From the NCBI RefSeq assembly GCF_014396165.1, contig NZ_CP060715.1, forward strand, positions 1,680,001 through 1,712,000: DNA of 32,000 nucleotides. Reading direction: 5' to 3'. The notes beneath the pieces were generated by a model, which saw only the letters and a list, made by a program, of their open reading frames with translations, was not told the origin of the DNA and did no database searches. A program made the position numbers and the translations under genes. The stretch comes from Erysipelothrix inopinata (GTDB lineage: Bacteria > Bacillota_I > Bacilli_A > Erysipelotrichales > Erysipelotrichaceae). Shown one piece after another: positions 10,205-27,605 of this stretch. Numbering within the stretch: position 1 is the stretch's first letter; each line of letters begins with the position of its first letter.

Positions 10205-10224
10205 GAATACGAAAAGATAAATAT

Positions 10225-10359
10225 TAGAGGTAGCGGTGCAGATGAGTACTTACTGGAGTCGACAGACTGTGAAAGTAAGAAAAGGCAATCACCGCCGAAT
10301 AGATTGTTTTGGTAAAAACAATCTATGGGGTTATGAGGAATACTTATAACACTCCTTTG
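10225..10359 (+). promoter_or_regulatory. Lysine (L-box) riboswitch aptamer, candidate
   Basis: L-box signature blocks occur in the canonical order: AGAGGtaGCG, GATGAGTA, GGAG, GTGAAAG, CGCCGAA. These are followed by a perfect 11-bp hairpin (10300-10325), TGGGG, a hairpin with a GAATA loop (10330-10350) and CACU. The closing P1 strand CCTTTG pairs with TAGAGG. The element sits in the 5' leader of an amino-acid ABC importer. Confidence 0.65.
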
Positions 10360-10390
10360 TTAAGCAAAGCGGCGCTAGAATTCTCCCAAT

Positions 10391-10434: not shown

Positions 10435-12036
10435 ATGAAAAAAATATTAATAGTATTAGCCTCACTTTTACTACTTACAGCCTGTTCTCAAACAAGTCCT
10501 AAAGAGAATACTTTAAAAGTGGGTATGGAGTGTAATTACGCACCTTTTAACTGGACTCAGAAAAATGATTCACCTGAGGCTGTCGCATTACCAAACAACC
10601 AGGGATACTGTGATGGTTATGATGTTCAAGTCGCTAAACATATCGCAAAAGATCTTGATATGAACCTTGTAATCAAAGACTATCCTGTATTTAAAGGATT
10701 GCTCGAAGGGGCAAAAGTTGGTGATATCGACTTAATTATTGCAGGAATGACGAATACAGAAGAACGTCGTCAAGAAGTTGACTTCACAGATATCTATTAC
10801 AAGAGTGATATGGTTCTGGTTGTTAAAAACGACAGTACTTATGCTAATGCAACATCCATTAATGATTTCAAGGGAGCCCATGTTTCAGCTCAAATTGGAA
10901 CAATGCATGATCAGCTAATTGATCAAATCCCTGATGTCAATCATGGAGTTCCACTTGAATCTTTCCCTTCGTTGGCAACAGCTTTAAAATCAAATGCGAT
11001 TGATGCCTTCGTATCGGAAAAACCGGTTGCTCAATCAATTATCAGTAGCAATCCTAAACTCAAATATGTTGAATTCGCAGAAAACCAAGGATTTACTGTC
11101 GCGGATGAAGAAGTAACGGTATCTATTGGTCTTGCAAAAGGCAACGATAAACTTAAAGAAGCAGTGAATCAATCATTATCTTCATTAAGTAAAGAAGATC
11201 GCGATAAACTCATGTTGGAAGCCATTGAACGCCAGCCAACATCAGAAGAAAATGAATCTGCACAAATGCCGGCTGGATTCATTGCAGGAACATTATTTTT
11301 ACTACAACATTACGGTTCACAATTTCTTAAAGGTGTTTGGGTAACGCTTCTTATTGCTTTATTAGGTACAGCATTTGGATTGTTTATTGGTCTTGTAATT
11401 GCAGGCTTACGACAAATTAAAATACATCCTCGAGACCGTGCAATGAAACGTGTCTTAAAACGTATTAATTCAGCAATTACAACTGCCTATGTTCAATACT
11501 TACGGGGAACTCCAATGATGGTACAAGGTATCTTAATCTATTACGGACTTAGAGGTATGGATGTAGCCATATCCCCTACTGTTGCTGCGGTAATCATTAT
11601 TTCAATCAATACTTCCGCGTATATGTCAGAAATACTTCGTGCGGGTATCCAAGCCATTGATTCAGGTCAAAATGAAGCAGCACGATCTTTGGGACTCAGT
11701 GAATTCCAAACGATGTGTTATGTAATCCTTCCACAAGCAATCAGAAATGCCCTACCTGCAATTGGTAATGAATTCGTCGTAAATATTAAAGATTCCTCAG
11801 TATTAAATGTAATCACCGTTACAGAACTATTCTATCAAGGTAATAAACTGACAGGTATCTACTACCGTCAAATGGAGCCATTCTTCATTGTTTCCTTAAT
11901 TTATCTATTCCTTACAATTGTTTCAACACAAGTACTTAATATGATAGAAAAGAAAATGGATGCTCCTAAAGGGAACTATCCAAAATCAGTAACTCACACT
12001 GTACATTATGACAGTTTGAAAGGAGATCAAAAATGA
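10435..12036 (+). CDS. Amino-acid ABC transporter, fused lipoprotein substrate-binding domain + permease domain
   Basis: It has a lipobox signal peptide ([17 protein letters not shown]). A family-3 binding-protein domain follows ([26 protein letters not shown]). The C-terminal polar-amino-acid permease domain carries the EAA loop ([23 protein letters not shown]). It overlaps the ATPase gene. Confidence 0.85.
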
Positions 12037-12773
12037 CATTCCTAAAAATTGAACACTTAAGCAAATCTTTCGATGATTTAGAAGTCTTAAAAGATATTAA
12101 TCTCAATATTGAAGAAGGAGAAGTCGTATCTTGTATCGGATCCAGTGGATCGGGAAAGTCCACCCTTCTTCGTTGCATCAACCTTCTTGAAGAATTTGAC
12201 GAAGGAAAAATTTTCTTTGAAGGAAAAGATATTTCGGATATCAATATGGATATCAATGAATATCGCTCTCAAGTCGGTATCATCTTTCAATCTTTCAATC
12301 TTTTTAATAATCTTACCGTCTTAGAGAACTGCACTCTGGCACCAATCAAAGTCTTGAAAATGAATCCAGATGAAGTTAAGAATAATGCCATGGCCAACCT
12401 TGAACGAGTTGGAATGGCAGACTTTGCAAATGCAAATGTTAAAAAGCTATCAGGCGGTCAAAAACAACGTGTTGCGATTGCGAGAGCACTCACGATGAAA
12501 CCTAAATTCTTATTACTAGATGAACCAACATCGGCATTAGACCCCGAAATGGTGGGCGATGTCTTGGACGTTATCGAAAGTCTTGCTAAAGAAGGCTATA
12601 CGATGTTTGTTGTTACACACGAAATGTTATTTGCAAAACAAATTAGTACTCGAATTCTATTTATGGATAAAGGAATCATTTTGGAAGAAGGAACTCCTGA
12701 TGAAATATTCAACCATCCGAAAGAAGAAAGAACAAAGCAATTCCTTGCACGATTCCACAATCAAAACGACTAA
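12033..12773 (+). CDS. Amino-acid ABC transporter ATP-binding protein (GlnQ/ArtP-like)
   Basis: Walker [11 protein letters not shown]-loop, signature [15 protein letters not shown], Walker [12 protein letters not shown] and H-loop VTHEM are all present. Confidence 0.9.
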
Positions 12774-21754: not shown

Positions 21755-23818
21755 TTAGAAGTCAATGATGACAGGAATATACATGCAAGTATACGTTACA
21801 TATACAGTCTTAGAATTTTCATCATAAGTAATAATTGGAGTCTCAGCCAAACTTGCTTTGAAATCAACAAATCCACCATATTCGGTTGAGCCATCGCCTA
21901 TGTACCCATTTTGACTTTGAGAGTAAGATCCAAACGATTCTTTTTCGACCCCATTCTCATCTAAATAGAACGTATTCAATTGGACTTCCTTAGGTAAATC
22001 ATTAATATTGAATTCCCAGTTAGATAACGTTACTGATTCCAGTTCTTCTCCGTACTTAACCACTACTGTGCGATTTGTGATGGGTTCATTGAATTTCAAA
22101 TAGTAATTTGAAAAATCAATAACCTCCGCTTGGTAACGTGATAGATCAGGGACTGCTATAAAGTCCTTAGTTGGGTAACCGTTTTGAACATGTTTAAATT
22201 TCACAACAGTTGTCATATATTTAACGGCCTTATCATAAACCACTGTAACTTCTTGATTTGATGCAGTGAATGTTCCTTCAAAGTTCCCTTGAAATTCTTT
22301 GAATTGATAACCATCTATAATTGGCGCTTCAACTTTATAAGAACTCCCTGTCACCCCAGTAAGAGTTACAGGATCTTTGATTTGATTGCCTAGCATATCG
22401 TGATAATTAACTAAAACAGTACCTTCAGTTAGAAGTTTGTTATATGTAATCGTAATGATTTGATCTTCAACTAAGAATGTATTGTTGCCAGGATTAGAAA
22501 TTTCTTTAAATTTATAGCCATCAATTTCGGGGATATCTACTTCGAAACCAGTACCTACTTCCCCAGACAAAACATTATTTGGTTTGAGCGGTGTTCCAGT
22601 TTCATCACGATATTCAATCGTTACCTTACCTATGGAAGAAACAATTTTTCTATATTGAACGATGACTTCTTGTTGCTGTTCAGTAAAGAGTCCTATGTTA
22701 TTGCCGACAAACTTAACAAACTCATACCCGTCAATCATATCAATTGAAACAGTATAAGTACTGCCTATACTACCAGTCATAATTTTAGTAGGTCTGATTG
22801 TATTTCCATCAATGTCTTGGTAATTAACAGTCAAGTTTCCATTCTTTATTACTTTATCATATACAAGAGTTATCACTTGATGTTCTTTAGTGAATAAGGC
22901 ATTACCTAGATTTTCAATATGATTGAATGTGTAGTTTGATATTTTAGGAATATCAACCTTAAATACAGATCCAATGCCACCTGTTAGCTTCATCTCAGGT
23001 TTGATAGCATTTCCTAAGGTATCGTGATAACGAAGTGTAACGAATCCAACTTTCGAATCGTTTTTTCGATAAATTGCAGTTACAGTTTGTTTTTCGATTG
23101 TGAAGCGCCCTTCAGAGTTACCTCTAAATTCTATAAATTGATATCCTTCGAGATCAACCACCTCAATTTTAAACGGTTTATTAACAACTCCTTTAACTTG
23201 AGTTTTGTTTGCGAGTACATTGCCAGTTTCATCTTGATAATGGACTTCAACTATGCCTTCTTTGTCTTCCACAACTTCATCAGGATTATCCTTTGCTGCA
23301 ACTATATATCCTAGATATTTATAACCCTGAATATGTTCTGGTTTTGGAGTAAAGGCTTCACCCTTAGTGACTGTAAGCGTAGTATCTTGAATTAGCGTTG
23401 AAGCATCAGCATAAATGTTCATAGCACCAATTGCGCCTACAGCAATAATGGTTCCAAGAATAACCAATCCAAACAAATTACCTTTTCCTGTTTTTTTGAA
23501 GAGTAACATTAAACCAATTGCGAGAAGTGCGACTCCTATAAATATAAAGGGAGATACAGAATTGAGTCCTGTATTAGGAAGCTCATTACCTCCAGTAATT
23601 TTCGAATAGATCATCCGAATATTGTAAACGTCCTGAGTAACACTAATCTCAGAAGAATCTTTAATTATAGAAGCTTTCTCAGAATCTGATAAATTATCGT
23701 AATTTATATGTGATACTGTTATTTCAGATTTTTTCGTATCACTCAACGCAAATGTTTGAGTGGCACCCATCAGCGACATTACCAAGACCATACACAATAA
23801 TCCAATCTTCTTTCTCAT
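21755..23818 (-). CDS. Secreted MucBP-repeat surface/adhesin-like protein with an internal LPNTG sorting-signal-like segment
   Basis: It has a signal peptide (MRKKIGLLCMVLVMSLMGATQTFA). An LPNTG + hydrophobic stretch + KKTGKG occupies residues 80-113, followed by a second hydrophobic segment. Five MucBP-like modules of about 69 aa follow, then a 153-aa C-terminal region without an anchor motif. Confidence 0.8.
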   Translation of the reverse strand: MRKKIGLLCMVLVMSLMGATQTFALSDTKKSEITVSHINYDNLSDSEKASIIKDSSEISVTQDVYNIRMIYSKITGGNELPNTGLNSVSPFIFIGVALLAIGLMLLFKKTGKGNLFGLVILGTIIAVGAIGAMNIYADASTLIQDTTLTVTKGEAFTPKPEHIQGYKYLGYIVAAKDNPDEVVEDKEGIVEVHYQDETGNVLANKTQVKGVVNKPFKIEVVDLEGYQFIEFRGNSEGRFTIEKQTVTAIYRKNDSKVGFVTLRYHDTLGNAIKPEMKLTGGIGSVFKVDIPKISNYTFNHIENLGNALFTKEHQVITLVYDKVIKNGNLTVNYQDIDGNTIRPTKIMTGSIGSTYTVSIDMIDGYEFVKFVGNNIGLFTEQQQEVIVQYRKIVSSIGKVTIEYRDETGTPLKPNNVLSGEVGTGFEVDIPEIDGYKFKEISNPGNNTFLVEDQIITITYNKLLTEGTVLVNYHDMLGNQIKDPVTLTGVTGSSYKVEAPIIDGYQFKEFQGNFEGTFTASNQEVTVVYDKAVKYMTTVVKFKHVQNGYPTKDFIAVPDLSRYQAEVIDFSNYYLKFNEPITNRTVVVKYGEELESVTLSNWEFNINDLPKEVQLNTFYLDENGVEKESFGSYSQSQNGYIGDGSTEYGGFVDFKASLAETPIITYDENSKTVYVTYTCMYIPVIIDF
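22226..23260 (-). repeat. Five tandem divergent MucBP-like coding repeats (about 207 bp each)
   Basis: The repeated protein pattern is G.V.V.Y.D..GN.I......TG..GS.Y.V....I.GY.F..F.GN..G.F......V.V.Y.K. The modules begin EGIVEVHYQDETGN, VGFVTLRYHDTLGN, NGNLTVNYQDIDGN, IGKVTIEYRDETGT and EGTVLVNYHDMLGN. Confidence 0.8.
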
Positions 23819-23920: not shown

Positions 23921-23957
23921 AAACATAAGAAAGAGATGGTAATGAATACCATCTCTT
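23921..23957 (-). terminator. Intrinsic terminator after the nucleoside hydrolase operon
   Basis: A 10-bp stem AAGAGATGGT / ACCATCTCTT (23931-23940 / 23948-23957) with a 7-nt loop. On the minus strand it is followed by TCTTATGTTT. It begins 3 nt after the stop codon. Confidence 0.75.
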
Positions 23958-23959
23958 CG

Positions 23960-24898
23960 CTATAATATTTTGTTAATAGTTGTAATGACTTCGTTTTTAA
24001 ATCCCTCAACATCTAAATCTAATGCGACTGAAACATTGGGTTTTTTTAGTTCGTTTTGAATGTTTACATCCATTACGGTTCTTCCCCACTGTTTTTCATC
24101 GGTTAACACATCAATCTTAAATTTTGATGTAGAAACAAGATCTGGTCTCAGCAATGCAATTACCGCTAGTGGGTCATGCATTGCTGCTCCATTCCAAGCT
24201 GGATAGATCAGTTCATGGGCTTTGAAGTAGTGATCCATAATTGCATAAACTGTTTGCGCCTTAGCACTGCCCTGTTTCCATGATTCTAAGTCGTTTCTCG
24301 AGAAAATAGCTCGGGATGTCACATCGAGGCCAACCATAATAATCTCCATATCACTTTGAAACACAACTTTTGATGATTCAGGGTCTTGCATGATATTTGC
24401 TTCAGCAACAGCACTTACGTTACCTGGAACACATAGAGCACCACCCATAAGCGATAGTTTGCCGACCCGACTCATTACATCTGGATCCATTTTGATTGCA
24501 TCTGCTAGATTAGTTAATGGTCCTGAAGCAATGATGACAAGTTCTTGACCATACTTACGAGCGGATTCTACAAGAAATGATGCTGCATCGAGCGCTTCAT
24601 ATTGGCGTGTTACATCAAGTGTAACGTTACCAATTCCATTATCTCCATGAAATATTTTACTTCCACGTTGTTGTTCATACGTGCTATTCTGCGAAGCATG
24701 CCCTGCTCCTCGATAAACAGGAACATCTGATCTTCCAAACAAATCAAGAAGTCCTAAAGTATTCCGAGTTGCTTGGTCTACATCCGTGTTACCATAAACA
24801 CACGTTACCCCAATAAGTTCCACATCTTCAAGCGCGGCAAGGTATGCGAGGTTTAAAGTATCATCAATGCCTGTATCAACATCTAAAATAACTTTCAT
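23960..24898 (-). CDS. Inosine-uridine-preferring-type nucleoside hydrolase (IUNH family)
   Basis: The N-terminal aspartate cluster ILDVDTGIDDTLNLAY (DxDxxxDD) is present, along with other family blocks (IASGPLTNLA, AEANIMQDPES, MHDPLAV). Confidence 0.85.
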   Translation of the reverse strand: MKVILDVDTGIDDTLNLAYLAALEDVELIGVTCVYGNTDVDQATRNTLGLLDLFGRSDVPVYRGAGHASQNSTYEQQRGSKIFHGDNGIGNVTLDVTRQYEALDAASFLVESARKYGQELVIIASGPLTNLADAIKMDPDVMSRVGKLSLMGGALCVPGNVSAVAEANIMQDPESSKVVFQSDMEIIMVGLDVTSRAIFSRNDLESWKQGSAKAQTVYAIMDHYFKAHELIYPAWNGAAMHDPLAVIALLRPDLVSTSKFKIDVLTDEKQWGRTVMDVNIQNELKKPNVSVALDLDVEGFKNEVITTINKIL

Positions 24899-24900
24899 AA

Positions 24901-25383
24901 TTATCCTGCAATCATAATTCCAAGTTGCGCTAGAATAGCACGACCGAGATAACTACCTAAGAATACAAAGAGAGCCACAATAATGTATTTCCATGAGTTT
25001 TTTGATAAATCACCGAGGTTATCTGCGACAGAAATTCCTGCGAAAGCAAGAACAGGCGTCGTGATTGAAAGGAAATCGACACCACTGATTGCTTGAATAA
25101 AGAAATCAGAAATGAGGCAGAAAATCAATGATGTCACGGATACCCAACCTAAAACCGGGAAATCAGCCAATACTTTAACACCTGTCTTTTTCATAAGTTC
25201 CGCAATCAGTAATCCAATGTACGCAAATAAGACAAGGACTATCAATCCCATAATAGTATTCATTGTAATCGGTGTTGAAGCTGGGTTTTTAATAAGTTTC
25301 ACAAATTGAGTGAAGAGAATTAATCCTGCTCCTAAAAATAACATTTTTAATTTTGGTAATTGTTCTTTTATAATCGTAATCAT
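24901..25383 (-). CDS. Uncharacterised small polytopic membrane protein (about 5 TM), operon partner of 25392-26186
   Basis: 160 aa and almost entirely hydrophobic helices. The RBS AGGAGG lies 4 nt before the ATG. Only 2 nt separate its stop from the hydrolase ATG. Confidence 0.7.
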   Translation of the reverse strand: MITIIKEQLPKLKMLFLGAGLILFTQFVKLIKNPASTPITMNTIMGLIVLVLFAYIGLLIAELMKKTGVKVLADFPVLGWVSVTSLIFCLISDFFIQAISGVDFLSITTPVLAFAGISVADNLGDLSKNSWKYIIVALFVFLGSYLGRAILAQLGIMIAG

Positions 25384-25391
25384 GGGGCCTC

Positions 25392-26186
25392 CTAGTTAAT
25401 AGCTCTTTCTTTTTTAAATACACGATACATGGCATTCATCAATGGAATTGAAACAAAGACCATTACATAAGTACCCATGAAACTTGTAACTAATTGACTT
25501 GCTCCTGCAAATGAAGTAATCGTACTTGCATGTTCTGGATAAAGACCTACAATCGCACTTGATGAAGCTGTCATCATACTTGCAGAACCCAACCCTGACG
25601 CAATAGCAAGCGCACGATAGTCAAATCCTACTGCACTTAATAGTGGTGGAATAAAGCTAAAGAATAACGATCCAAATAAGGTTCCTACAAGATACATTGA
25701 TAGAACACCACGACCTTCATCGCCATTCAATCCAAATTTTTCAGTAATAAATGCAAGTTCACCTTCACGACCAATACCCAGAGTCGCACCGATTGCTTCA
25801 CGATTTAAGCCTAATAACAGAGCTATTGGTAATCCTAAAATAACGGTACCGATATTTCCAACAGATTGGAGTAAGAATACCCAACCAAGTTGTAAAATTT
25901 CATTGATTTTAGGCGCAACATCCGCACCATAGCGTGCCATAAGTGGCAACATAATAAAGATTAAATTACTTCCTGCAAACTTGATGTTTTCCTTAGAATA
26001 TACTGATTTCAAAGGCCCTTTTCTTAGTGCTGGTATTCCAATAATCATCGTTAGTAGCACAGCAAATACAAGTGGCAATACTAGAATTGTAATACTCCCT
26101 ACTTTGATGAATTGCATACCAATCATTTCTGATATAAAAATAATTCCCATTACATATAGTAAAAATACTATTTTATCTTTTTTCAA
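25392..26186 (-). CDS. Uncharacterised polytopic membrane protein (about 7-8 TM), candidate transporter subunit
   Basis: 264 aa and Gly/Ala/Ser-rich (GLGSASMMTASSSAIVG, GREGELAFITEKFG). Its start overlaps the end of the GNAT gene by 14 nt. In size and pairing it recalls two-subunit carriers, but homology is not verifiable here. Confidence 0.7.
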   Translation of the reverse strand: MKKDKIVFLLYVMGIIFISEMIGMQFIKVGSITILVLPLVFAVLLTMIIGIPALRKGPLKSVYSKENIKFAGSNLIFIMLPLMARYGADVAPKINEILQLGWVFLLQSVGNIGTVILGLPIALLLGLNREAIGATLGIGREGELAFITEKFGLNGDEGRGVLSMYLVGTLFGSLFFSFIPPLLSAVGFDYRALAIASGLGSASMMTASSSAIVGLYPEHASTITSFAGASQLVTSFMGTYVMVFVSIPLMNAMYRVFKKERAIN

Positions 26187-26634
26187 TGTGTTGTCTCTCC
26201 TTAAAGTCTGAATACTTAATCATCTCAACATGTTTAATCCCAAATTTTTGTATGGGATCACTTTCCGCAATAAATCCTTCTGATTTATAAAAGCTTTGTA
26301 AATGCGCTTGTGCACAAATCGTTGCAGTATTAATACCAAGTGTAAATGCCATATCAATTGAATCTTTCACAAGACGTCTTCCCAAAGATTGCTTACGGTA
26401 ACTGTCTTTAACGCAGATTCGCTCTATATAGCCCCTTCCATCTACAATTCGTATTCGTGAACTGGCGGCAACTTCACCATTATTCGAATAAACAAGATGC
26501 ATGCAATCGTCATCTTCCTCGTCTTCAGGATAGAAGTCAATCAAAGATTGTTCTTGAATGAAGACGGAGTTCCTTAGCGCAACAACGTCATCCCAGATAG
26601 GTTGTTGTCGGACATTACCAAAAAATCGTTCCAC
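26173..26634 (-). CDS. GNAT-family N-acetyltransferase
   Basis: 153 aa with the acetyl-CoA-binding motif A (ICVKDSYRKQSLGRRLV) and the C-terminal FYKSEGF. The GTG start lies 4 nt after AAGGAGG. Confidence 0.8.
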   Translation of the reverse strand: MERFFGNVRQQPIWDDVVALRNSVFIQEQSLIDFYPEDEEDDDCMHLVYSNNGEVAASSRIRIVDGRGYIERICVKDSYRKQSLGRRLVKDSIDMAFTLGINTATICAQAHLQSFYKSEGFIAESDPIQKFGIKHVEMIKYSDFKERQHIEKR

Positions 26635-26651
26635 TATTCCTCCTTAAAATT

Positions 26652-26673
26652 AAAAAACTGCCATGTTCGGCAG
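26652..26673 (-). terminator. Expression-platform terminator of the purine riboswitch
   Basis: Minus-strand CTGCC gaacat GGCAG followed by TTTTTT, then AAGGAGG and the start codon. The CTGCC arm can alternatively pair within a 12-bp helix (one bulge) with GGCAAAAGAGAA, which immediately follows and overlaps the aptamer P1 3' strand. Confidence 0.65.
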
Positions 26674-26718
26674 AAAGAGAAAATAGTAAAACGATTTGCA
26701 ATTGCAAATTCTCTTTTG

Positions 26719-26783
26719 CCATAGTTCGTATCTTTACGGGACACAAGTAGAGACTTCCGGACCTTATTACCAGAAATATATGG
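26719..26783 (-). promoter_or_regulatory. Purine riboswitch aptamer, guanine-type (C at the specificity position)
   Basis: The minus strand reads CCAUAUAUUUCUGGUAAUAAGGUCCGGAAGUCUCUACUUGUGUCCCGUAAAGAUACGAACUAUGG. It aligns nearly position for position with the B. subtilis xpt aptamer. P1 is CCAUA/UAUGG, L2 is AAUAAGG, J2-3 is GUCUCUAC, L3 is CCGUAAA and J3-1 is ACU. Confidence 0.8.
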
Positions 26784-26798
26784 AGTTTTTACGAGACA

Positions 26799-26827
26799 AT
26801 AGTATCATTTACAAACGTGAGAGTCAA
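26799..26827 (-). promoter_or_regulatory. Sigma-A promoter of the riboswitch operon
   Basis: On the minus strand, TTGACT (26827-26822), a 17-nt spacer and an extended -10 TGaTACTAT (-10 at 26804-26799). Confidence 0.7.
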
Positions 26828-26884
26828 CCAAACGACTCCCTTTTAACTTGACTAAGATTTCACTTAGTTTTTATAGGTTTCAAC

Positions 26885-26912
26885 AAAAAATAAAGACGAG
26901 CTATTGCTCGCC
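26885..26912 (-). terminator. Intrinsic terminator after the XRE/membrane-protein pair
   Basis: Minus-strand GGCGAGC aata GCTCGTC followed by TTTATTTTTT, starting 8 nt after the stop at 26920. Confidence 0.75.
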
Positions 26913-26919
26913 GTTGATA

Positions 26920-27345
26920 CTAAATTTGATTGTGAATTTCTTTTGACTTACGCCATGCAAGAATAGCGTAACTGCTTGTAGCGATTGCCTCTACAATAAT
27001 TGTATGAGTGTTTGTTATCGTATACAAACCACGAGCTTCATCGGGCATAATTAATGATAAAACAGATCCAGCTACAAAAAATACAGCGATAATAGTCATA
27101 ATAATTTTAGATTTATGAACAACTTGATCATCCAAGCCGTCTCGAATCATCATATAACTTACAACAAAGAAGAGACAGGCGTATATCATTGCGAAGTCAA
27201 AACGTGTTAGAGACTCAATTGTTAATCCAAAAATGTCGACACAGAAATCTTTCACTACAATCATGACGATTAGCATCAAGAAACCGTATAATACCCCTTT
27301 ACCTCTAATAGCCAGCATTCTTTCATCCATTTCACTTGTAAACAT
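26920..27345 (-). CDS. Small 4-TM membrane protein co-transcribed with an XRE regulator
   Basis: The ATG at 27345 lies 5 nt after GAGAGGAGAA and 1 nt after the XRE stop. The N-terminal MDERML motif followed by four hydrophobic helices is typical of the widespread small membrane proteins paired with short HTH regulators. Confidence 0.7.
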   Translation of the reverse strand: MFTSEMDERMLAIRGKGVLYGFLMLIVMIVVKDFCVDIFGLTIESLTRFDFAMIYACLFFVVSYMMIRDGLDDQVVHKSKIIMTIIAVFFVAGSVLSLIMPDEARGLYTITNTHTIIVEAIATSSYAILAWRKSKEIHNQI

Positions 27346-27346
27346 A

Positions 27347-27532
27347 CTAATTCTCCTCTCTCCAGAATAAATCATTTAAAGTAACCTCCAACGCCTTACA
27401 TATCTTAATACATAGATCCAAAGTTGGATTGTAATCTCCGTTTTCAACACTGACTATCGTTTGTCGTGATACTCCAACAATTTTCGCCAGTTCTAATTGC
27501 GAGTACTTCTTAGATAGTCGCAACGTTTTCAT
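27347..27532 (-). CDS. XRE-family (Cro/CI-type) helix-turn-helix transcriptional regulator
   Basis: The sequence MKTLRLSKKYSQLELAKIVGVSRQTIVSVENGDYNPTLDLCIKICKALEVTLNDLF is a classic HTH_3 pattern. The start is uncertain. The ATG at 27532 lacks a good SD, whereas an in-frame ATT at 27547 lies 8 nt after GGAGG. The ORF-track start at 27601 would overlap the predicted promoter and is rejected. Confidence 0.8.
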   Translation of the reverse strand: MKTLRLSKKYSQLELAKIVGVSRQTIVSVENGDYNPTLDLCIKICKALEVTLNDLFWREEN

Positions 27533-27557
27533 GGTTTCATTTTTAATGACGACCACC

Positions 27558-27605
27558 TCCAATGTCAAATATAGTATACACCGGGTTATTTCCGATGTCA
27601 AATAT
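27558..27605 (-). repeat. Two 15-nt direct repeats ATATTTGACAT(C/T)GGA, candidate operator sites
   Basis: The copies lie at 27591-27605 (overlapping the -35) and 27558-27572 (around the start site, overlapping GGAGG). They are spaced 33 nt start to start and match at 14 of 15 positions. Confidence 0.5.
27573..27601 (-). promoter_or_regulatory. Sigma-A promoter of the XRE/membrane-protein operon
   Basis: On the minus strand, TTGACA (27601-27596), a 17-nt spacer and TATACT (27578-27573). Confidence 0.7.

Follow-up and report, generated by a model that had tools for sequence, protein, structure and literature searches.

The 32,000-nucleotide (nt) stretch of Erysipelothrix inopinata DNA analysed here (contig NZ_CP060715.1, positions 1,680,001 to 1,712,000; hereafter the window) contains a purine riboswitch on its minus strand. 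The riboswitch is followed by four genes, which encode a GNAT acetyltransferase, a membrane protein with a DUF3100 domain, a second membrane protein of 160 amino acids (aa), here named TM160, and an inosine-uridine-type (IU-type) nucleoside hydrolase. The element is very probably a canonical guanine-I transcriptional OFF switch that heads this four-gene Erysipelothrix operon and serves the end-product repression of nucleoside uptake and hydrolysis. What was computed is the match to the riboswitch family, the residues that line the pocket, the helices that exclude each other, sequence conservation and the families of the genes; which ligand binds, whether transcripts really terminate, what is transported and what GNAT does are inferred.

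All four genes are located on the minus strand. The GNAT gene starts with GTG at 26634, stops at 26173 and is preceded by the Shine-Dalgarno sequence AAGGAGG at 26645..26639 (26173..26645 together). Its 153-aa product matches the Pfam families Acetyltransf_10, Acetyltransf_1 and Acetyltransf_7, and among solved structures it is closest to S. aureus SACOL1063, B. subtilis YjcF and E. coli ElaA, whose physiological substrates are all unknown. The DUF3100 protein (264 aa, 25392..26186; PF11299, 281.7 bits) is encoded next, and beside it lies the gene of TM160 (24901..25383), which belongs to no family: Pfam and NCBIfam gave no match, and Pfam is also empty at E <= 10. Sequence searches in the PDB with DUF3100 and TM160 found nothing. 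The hydrolase (312 aa, 23960..24898) matches PF01156 with 284.2 bits against a cut-off of 34.2. It contains the N-terminal DXDXXXDD motif as DVDTGIDD at residues 6-13 as well as an HDP motif, and its best NCBIfam match is RihC, below the equivalog cut-off. These Pfam assignments agree with a preliminary description of the locus, made from the sequence, which had listed an acetyltransferase, two membrane proteins and a nucleoside hydrolase behind the riboswitch.

The DUF3100 gene begins, with TTG at 26186, before the GNAT gene has ended, so that the two overlap by 14 nt (26173..26186, minus strand), and the next two gaps measure 8 and 2 nt. Because the genes are so tightly packed or overlapping, the four are taken to form one transcript, and their spacing suggests translational coupling along the operon. 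A terminator-like hairpin of 12 pairs, found by a terminator scan at 23930..23958 (minus strand), ends the operon.

Aptamer structure, class and conservation

The Rfam Purine family (RF00167) matches the minus strand at 26803..26702 over model positions 1-102 of 102. This full-length match (26702..26803) scores 69.8 bits with the covariance model, for which the gathering score is 37, and its E-value of 1.5e-10 refers to the whole 32-kb window searched with cmscan against 4227 families. The match provides the check that the preliminary description had proposed. The 65-nt guanine-type aptamer which that description had drawn, with its J2-3, the GG of L2, the CC of L3 and ACU at J3-1, was found in every part at the positions given for it.

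The aptamer core (26719..26783, minus strand, 65 nt from P1 to P1) was delineated by reading the sequence together with a scripted base-by-base check of the helices. P1 is composed of CCAUA (26783..26779) and UAUGG (26723..26719) in five pairs, P2 of UUCUGGU (26775..26769) and UCCGGAA (26761..26755) in six pairs plus a closing U.U, and P3 of UUGUGUC (26746..26740) and GAUACGA (26732..26726) in seven pairs. All pairs of the three stems are canonical or G-U, with the U.U that closes L2 as the sole exception. The stems are joined by J1-2 (UAU, 26778..26776), the 8-nt J2-3 (GUCUCUAC, 26754..26747) and the 2-nt J3-1 (AC, A26725 and C26724, then U26723). L2 (AAUAAGG, 26768..26762) carries GG at 26763..26762 and L3 (CCGUAAA, 26739..26733) carries CC at 26739..26738. 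The nucleotides for the loop-loop pairs G37-C61 and G38-C60 are therefore present in the sequence, and the tertiary contact between the loops is predicted.

The pocket residues U22 (U26778), U47 (U26753), U51 (U26749) and C74 (C26724) are all present, and GUCUCUAC follows the guanine-I pattern G-U-Y-U-C-U-A-C, in which UYUC is the J2-3 consensus of the class (PMC12342879). The B. subtilis xpt-pbuX G-box, a guanine-I riboswitch, shares with this element the three-stem junction, the GG/CC kissing pairs between L2 and L3, residues U22, U47, U51 and C74, and a J2-3 of the form GUYUCUAC. Compared with the G-box, the element has U24 for A, A36 for U and a P1 of five pairs.

These differences are also departures from the consensus. 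J1-2 is UAU instead of UAA, with U at position 24 (window 26776), and L2 is AAUAAGG instead of AAUAUGG, with A in place of U at position 36, which is A or C among the strains. The preliminary description had spoken of a match at nearly every conserved position; this holds for the pocket, but the deviations at J1-2 (U24), at L2 (A36) and in the five-pair P1 had gone unmentioned. U24 and C48 are both scored positively by cmscan. In the add structure, A24 stacks between A73 and the G72-C54 pair and makes no ligand contact (PMC3683926). Since A24 lacks a ligand contact, the cmscan score at this position is positive and the sister lineage of Erysipelothrix described below has A, U24 might be a lineage-specific substitution, possibly one that lowers affinity, rather than a change of class.

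All sequence-level features of guanine-I were found in the element, and the defining features of every variant class were absent. Adenine riboswitches carry U at position 74, and this class was rejected, as position 74 is C (26724). The 2'-deoxyguanosine (2'-dG) classes 2'-dG-I and 2'-dG-II recognise the sugar edge of the guanine moiety through a cytosine in place of U51 (PMC12342879); U51 is kept here (U26749), which dismisses both. The xanthine-II and guanine-II classes have insertions in J2-3 and J3-1, together with U51G in xanthine-II (PMC9295807), and were discarded on the basis of a J2-3 of 8 nt, a J3-1 of 2 nt (AC) and the retained U51. The 8-oxoguanine riboswitch lacks U47, is associated with 8-oxoguanine deaminase and acts as an ON switch (PMC10556655). 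It does not fit either, since the element retains U47 (26753) and all 8 nt of J2-3. Judged by its sequence, the element belongs to the purine riboswitches, among which C74 marks it as guanine-type; it is an ordinary, canonical guanine-I aptamer, and its ligand would be guanine or hypoxanthine.

The leader is common to seven near-identical loci (L001-L007). The 143-nt leader of L007 differs from that of the window by two substitutions, one in L2 and the other turning a G.U pair of P3 into A-U, whereas the DNA upstream of the -35 hexamer shows about 20 changes per 100 nt and the hydrolase proteins share 86% identity. The -35 and -10 hexamers and the TG between them are kept in L007, while the spacer and the DNA upstream of -35 vary. 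In addition, the metagenome-assembled genome JAVWLP010000027 encodes a DUF3100 protein 99% identical to that of the window.

The preliminary description had called for a comparison of leaders across orthologous operons, which finds the same riboswitch and operon in sister Erysipelothrix species. The orthologous operon of E. anatis, E. aquatica and strain HDW6C is preceded by a purine riboswitch scoring 52-56 bits, and its first gene encodes an adenine deaminase (TIGR01178, 485.8 bits against a cut-off of 472.5). The helices of this lineage (P1 CGUUAUA/UAUGACG, P2 UGUCCA/UGGACA, P3 ACUUAA/UUAAGU) have other sequences and pair fully in this comparison of two lineages. J2-3, L3 and J3-1 are identical to those of the window, and J1-2 is the canonical UAA. 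The cross-lineage pairs were checked with a hand-built segmentation, as MAFFT misaligned the 5' half. Between species of the sister lineage, conservation is limited to the aptamer and ~85 nt after it.

In E. anatis (L008 3340..3780) and HDW6C (L090), ~420 nt separate the aptamer from the adenine deaminase gene, and the first ~85 nt are the conserved part. This part contains a hairpin holding AAGGAG-N7-AUG, followed by a U-run; the 85-aa open reading frame that starts there is unconserved, and a second stem with a U-run is located near L008 3588..3662.

When 40 DUF3100 loci, drawn from genomes as well as metagenomes, were scanned with Rfam, no purine riboswitch was found outside Erysipelothrix, and in a motif and nhmmer scan of 183 DUF3100 loci (1.67 Mb) the purine matches are confined to this genus. 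A motif match in L113-L117 was rejected, being below the Rfam threshold in the two loci scanned with Rfam, L113 and L116. The metagenome scan returned zero loci of the Erysipelothrix lineage, with a best identity of 74%. The link between the riboswitch and the DUF3100 operon is genus-restricted in this sample.

Promoter and expression platform

A promoter-like site is located just upstream of the aptamer (26799..26827, minus strand). It is composed of the -35 hexamer TTGACT (26827..26822), a 17-nt spacer, TG at 26807..26806 and the -10 hexamer TACTAT (26804..26799); it agrees with the consensus at 9 of 12 positions and also has the TG extension. The consensus-like promoter of the preliminary description is thus present as TTGACT-17-TACTAT with TG, but such sites are no more frequent than in shuffled sequence (28 observed in the consensus scan, 29.5 expected). 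Because the count does not exceed that of the shuffles, the support for the promoter is positional rather than statistical. We infer a transcription start near 26792, about 6-9 nt before P1. The preceding genes are closed by a terminator at 26912..26895, so the riboswitch heads its own transcription unit.

An inverted repeat, GAGTC..GACTC, lies over the -35 hexamer (plus strand 26821..26838) and was put down to chance, as it is unconserved in L007. About 25 nt upstream of -35, the palindrome CTAAG-N6-CTTAG (26852..26867, minus strand) is unchanged in L007 despite variation nearby; it might be an operator at which a protein exerts further control, or could have arisen by chance.

The 143-nt leader folds with -36.4 kcal/mol, compared with -23.4 +/- 3.4 kcal/mol for shuffled sequences (z = -3.85), and none of 200 shuffles is as stable. 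The hexamer AUGGCA occurs twice, as the preliminary description had recognised, at the 3' strand of P1 (26722..26717) and in the 3' arm of the terminator (26664..26659). The antiterminator (26669..26720, minus strand) joins GGCA-AAAGAGAA (26720..26709) with UUCUCUUU-(C)-UGCC (26681..26669) through 12 pairs and one bulge, and encloses the palindromic hairpin UUUGCAAUUGCAAA (26708..26695, minus strand). Downstream, the terminator scan identified an intrinsic terminator (26652..26673, minus strand), whose CUGCCG/UGGCAG stem with the loop AACA (26673..26658) is followed by U6 (26657..26652). At the DNA level this terminator-like hairpin reads CTGCCGAACATGGCAG and then T6 (26673..26652). In isolation, the hairpin with its 6-pair stem has a stability of -7.7 kcal/mol.

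The leader up to the U-tract was folded in three ways. In the unconstrained fold (-36.4 kcal/mol), the antiterminator is the minimum-free-energy structure. When the 5' strand of P1 is blocked (-31.1 kcal/mol), the same antiterminator forms and the terminator is absent. When P1, P2 and P3 are enforced (-31.3 kcal/mol), the AAAGAGAA/UUCUCUUU helix is retained, UGCC shifts to the downstream GGCAG and the terminator forms beside U6. In constrained folding, the terminator therefore forms solely when P1 is enforced. As the two constrained states are near-equal in energy, which of them prevails would depend on the free energy of ligand binding. On these folds the platform is predicted to be a transcriptional OFF switch, with probable termination at U6. 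This is in line with the earlier proposal that CUGCC pairs with either copy of AUGGCA and that the ligand turns the switch OFF, although the antiterminator, with its 12 pairs, is larger than had been described. The xpt-pbuX G-box likewise combines an antiterminator that shares P1 with an intrinsic terminator and OFF logic, which in the present element is predicted.

Gene neighbourhoods and the DUF3100-TM160 pair

In the sub-clade nearest to the window (72-84% identity), a nucleoside hydrolase gene follows the DUF3100-TM160 pair in every complete locus. This module is variously joined by ribokinase (TIGR02152, above the cut-off in three of the four tested), adenine deaminase, GNAT and an RbsR/PurR-like LacI regulator, and the order of the genes is shuffled among the loci. 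By its gene families, the module fits nucleoside utilisation, in which putative import would be followed by hydrolysis to base and ribose, phosphorylation of the ribose and deamination of adenine to hypoxanthine. The operon is read as serving purine-nucleoside salvage because adenine deaminase is the first gene in the sister species, and ribokinase and an RbsR/PurR-like repressor occur in related modules. The DUF3100-TM160-hydrolase module is also found with variable partners and without a riboswitch in L103 (3316..8259), L100, L101 and L092, and an intergenic region of L103 contains the palindromes AACCGGTT and AAACGGTTT. Other taxa appear to use protein regulators, such as LacI in L103.

The DUF3100 and TM160 genes adjoin each other in 80 of the 80 genome loci recovered. 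Moreover, an exhaustive search with TM160 returned six natural fusions (P0121, P0166, P0177, P0185, P0235 and P0249; 429-471 aa) in which it follows DUF3100 as the C-terminal part, by which sequence evidence the two genes are the halves of one ~430-aa membrane protein. A model of a natural fusion reached a predicted local distance difference test (pLDDT) score of 78 and a predicted template modelling (pTM) score of 0.80. The best Foldseek match of the fusion model is the Na+/citrate symporter CitS, aligned over the full length with a probability of 0.9-1.0, E-values of 1.4e-3 to 3e-2 and TM-scores of 0.23-0.43; the remaining top matches are nearly all transporters as well. DUF3100 alone gave no significant match, the best E-value being 0.24. 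The model is suggestive of a CitS-like secondary transporter formed by DUF3100 and TM160 together. The likeness to the elevator-type fold of CitS and the 2-hydroxycarboxylate transporters consists in the full-length alignment of the fusion model with CitS chains, whereas sequence similarity to CitS is absent, the E-values are borderline and the protein is split over two genes here.

Guanine riboswitches are known to shut off nucleoside transporter genes, namely nupG/yxjA in B. subtilis and nupC in B. anthracis (PMC5393184). The operon resembles these cases in having a guanine-bound OFF switch on nucleoside supply, by which the salvage product would repress uptake. It differs from them in its presumed transporter, which is the split DUF3100/TM160 pair, co-transcribed with the hydrolase and GNAT. 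The genes also differ from the xpt-pbuX, pur and pbuG targets, being GNAT, DUF3100, TM160 and nucleoside hydrolase instead. The preliminary description had called this gene set non-canonical, which is true of the names of the genes but not of their logic, given the adenine deaminase in the sister species, the ribokinase and RbsR/PurR-like repressor elsewhere, and the nupG/nupC-like control. Atypical downstream genes alone do not imply a change of ligand, and in this operon they do not signal one because the binding pocket is canonical.

Mechanism, alternatives and significance

In the mechanism that we propose, transcription would start about 6-9 nt before P1. Guanine or hypoxanthine in the pocket would pair with C74, touch U22, U47 and U51, and stabilise the 5-bp P1 (CCAUA/UAUGG). 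With ligand bound, the GG of GGCA would be held in P1, leaving UGCC free for the downstream GGCAG, and the CUGCCG/UGGCAG hairpin with U6 would then stop transcription ahead of the GNAT gene. Without ligand, GGCA+AAAGAGAA would pair with UUCUCUUU(C)UGCC in the 12-bp antiterminator, so that the terminator is blocked and the operon transcribed. DUF3100 and TM160, as halves of one CitS-like secondary transporter, would take up nucleosides, which the hydrolase would split into base and ribose; in the sister species, adenine deaminase would turn adenine into hypoxanthine. The purine-base products would thus repress their own supply route, as with the nupG/nupC guanine riboswitches.

Several observations weigh against this reading. 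P1 has five pairs, with the three outer pairs of the model mismatched. U24 in place of the consensus A could lower the affinity for the ligand, by analogy with add, where A24 has a stacking role (PMC3683926). The dynamic range may be small, because P1 comprises five pairs and the terminator stem six (-7.7 kcal/mol). When the leaders of the E. anatis lineage are folded, a hairpin resembling a terminator appears with or without P1 and no clear ON and OFF states emerge; since the hairpin forms regardless of P1, the lineage does not help to tell ON from OFF independently. On the protein side, most DUF3100-TM160 pairs in other taxa, for example Paenibacillus and Enterococcus, adjoin M20 peptidases and not nucleoside genes, so nucleosides are a putative substrate of DUF3100/TM160. 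The evidence for a transporter is borderline, with no Foldseek match at E <= 0.001 and TM-scores of 0.23-0.43. Finally, GNAT is conserved in the module without an explanation for its presence.

Some of these points would also suit other explanations. It is unlikely that the riboswitch works as described and the operon does not serve nucleoside salvage, the DUF3100/TM160 pair moving another substrate, such as a GNAT-linked N-acyl compound, under purine control inherited from an ancestor with adenine deaminase as its first gene. The M20 peptidases beside the pair in Paenibacillus and Enterococcus, the lack of a known purine role for GNAT and the position of the riboswitch directly before adenine deaminase in the sister species would be consistent with such a history. 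However, the hydrolase gene follows the pair in every complete locus of the nearest sub-clade (72-84% identity), ribokinase, adenine deaminase and the RbsR/PurR-like regulator recur in differing gene orders, and the tight or overlapping genes argue for a single transcript. Less probable still is a decaying relic that regulates nothing. Its short P1 of five pairs, the conserved positions 24 and 36 that are off consensus and the weak terminator hairpin (-7.7 kcal/mol) could be seen as decay, but the aptamer scores far above the Rfam threshold and the leader has a folding z-score of -3.85. Furthermore, the whole leader and platform are near-invariant across strains with differing flanks and proteins, and one of the two changes preserves pairing. 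Weak terminators also occur in working guanine riboswitches, such as that of B. anthracis pbuG, whose terminator is unstable (PMC5393184).

The presence of a nucleoside hydrolase in the operon brings in 2'-dG-III, whose riboswitches are ON switches associated exclusively with purine nucleoside hydrolase genes (PMC9295807). A nucleoside-sensing variant of this kind, by which a build-up of guanosine or 2'-deoxyguanosine would turn the operon ON, is highly improbable here. The 2'-dG-III riboswitch of Bacillus sp. does share with the element the scaffold, the association with a nucleoside hydrolase, a C that pairs with the guanine moiety and a J1-2 of UAU, which replaces the UAA of guanine-I. In 2'-dG-III, J1-2 is formed by U21 A22 U23, and a U at this J1-2 site pairs with an inserted A (PMC12282948). 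However, 2'-dG-III has CAA for UYUC in J2-3 as well as inserted junction nucleotides (PMC12342879), and combines them with ON logic and a hydrolase gene directly downstream, none of which was found here. Instead, J2-3 is GUCUCUAC, the guanine-I pattern without insertions, the platform folds as an OFF switch, the hydrolase gene is fourth and not first, and the sister lineage has the canonical UAA in J1-2. The class was rejected on these grounds, and guanine-I remains the class to which we assign the element.

As an RNA, the canonical guanine-I switch adds nothing new to riboswitch biology, since it joins a textbook aptamer to a textbook termination platform. Its value is that of a functional pointer, linking the widespread, uncharacterised DUF3100/TM160 pair and the conserved GNAT to purine-nucleoside salvage, and it gives DUF3100, a domain without a known function, a specific annotation that can be tested. 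The searched literature (open-access text only) contains no mention of DUF3100 and no link between Erysipelothrix and purine riboswitches, and it connects a purine riboswitch with an IU-type hydrolase in the 2'-dG-III work alone. A further-reaching proposal, which we hold with rather less than even confidence, is that DUF3100 and its 160-aa partner form an unrecognised family of split CitS-like secondary transporters, of which the hydrolase-linked sub-clade imports purine nucleosides or a related purine compound. The ElaA/YjcF-like GNAT would then be a working part of the pathway, acetylating, for example, a co-imported amino-nucleoside or an intermediate. If this were true, the Erysipelothrix guanine riboswitch would provide the first regulatory evidence that ties DUF3100 to purine metabolism.

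Further genes flank the operon. Directly downstream, at 21755..23818 (minus strand), lies the gene of a 687-aa surface protein with five MucBP repeats, which has 678 aa in the near-identical strains. Upstream, at 26920..27601 (minus strand), an 84-aa XRE-family helix-turn-helix (HTH) gene overlaps the gene of a 151-aa membrane protein without a confident family; small HTH genes likewise precede the GNAT-DUF3100 operon in L100.

Two further riboswitches were noticed. The window contains a lysine riboswitch (RF00168, 82.4 bits) at 10217..10385 on the plus strand. It is followed by a gene for a 533-aa fusion of SBP_bac_3 and BPD_transp_1 (10435..12036, plus strand) and one for an ATP-binding cassette (ABC) ATPase (12033..12773, plus strand), which judging by these families presumably form a lysine-repressed amino-acid ABC importer (10435..12773). 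In Erysipelothrix sp. HDW6C, an M-box (magnesium) riboswitch of 107.8 bits is located near a P-type ATPase gene (L090 11774..11931, minus strand).

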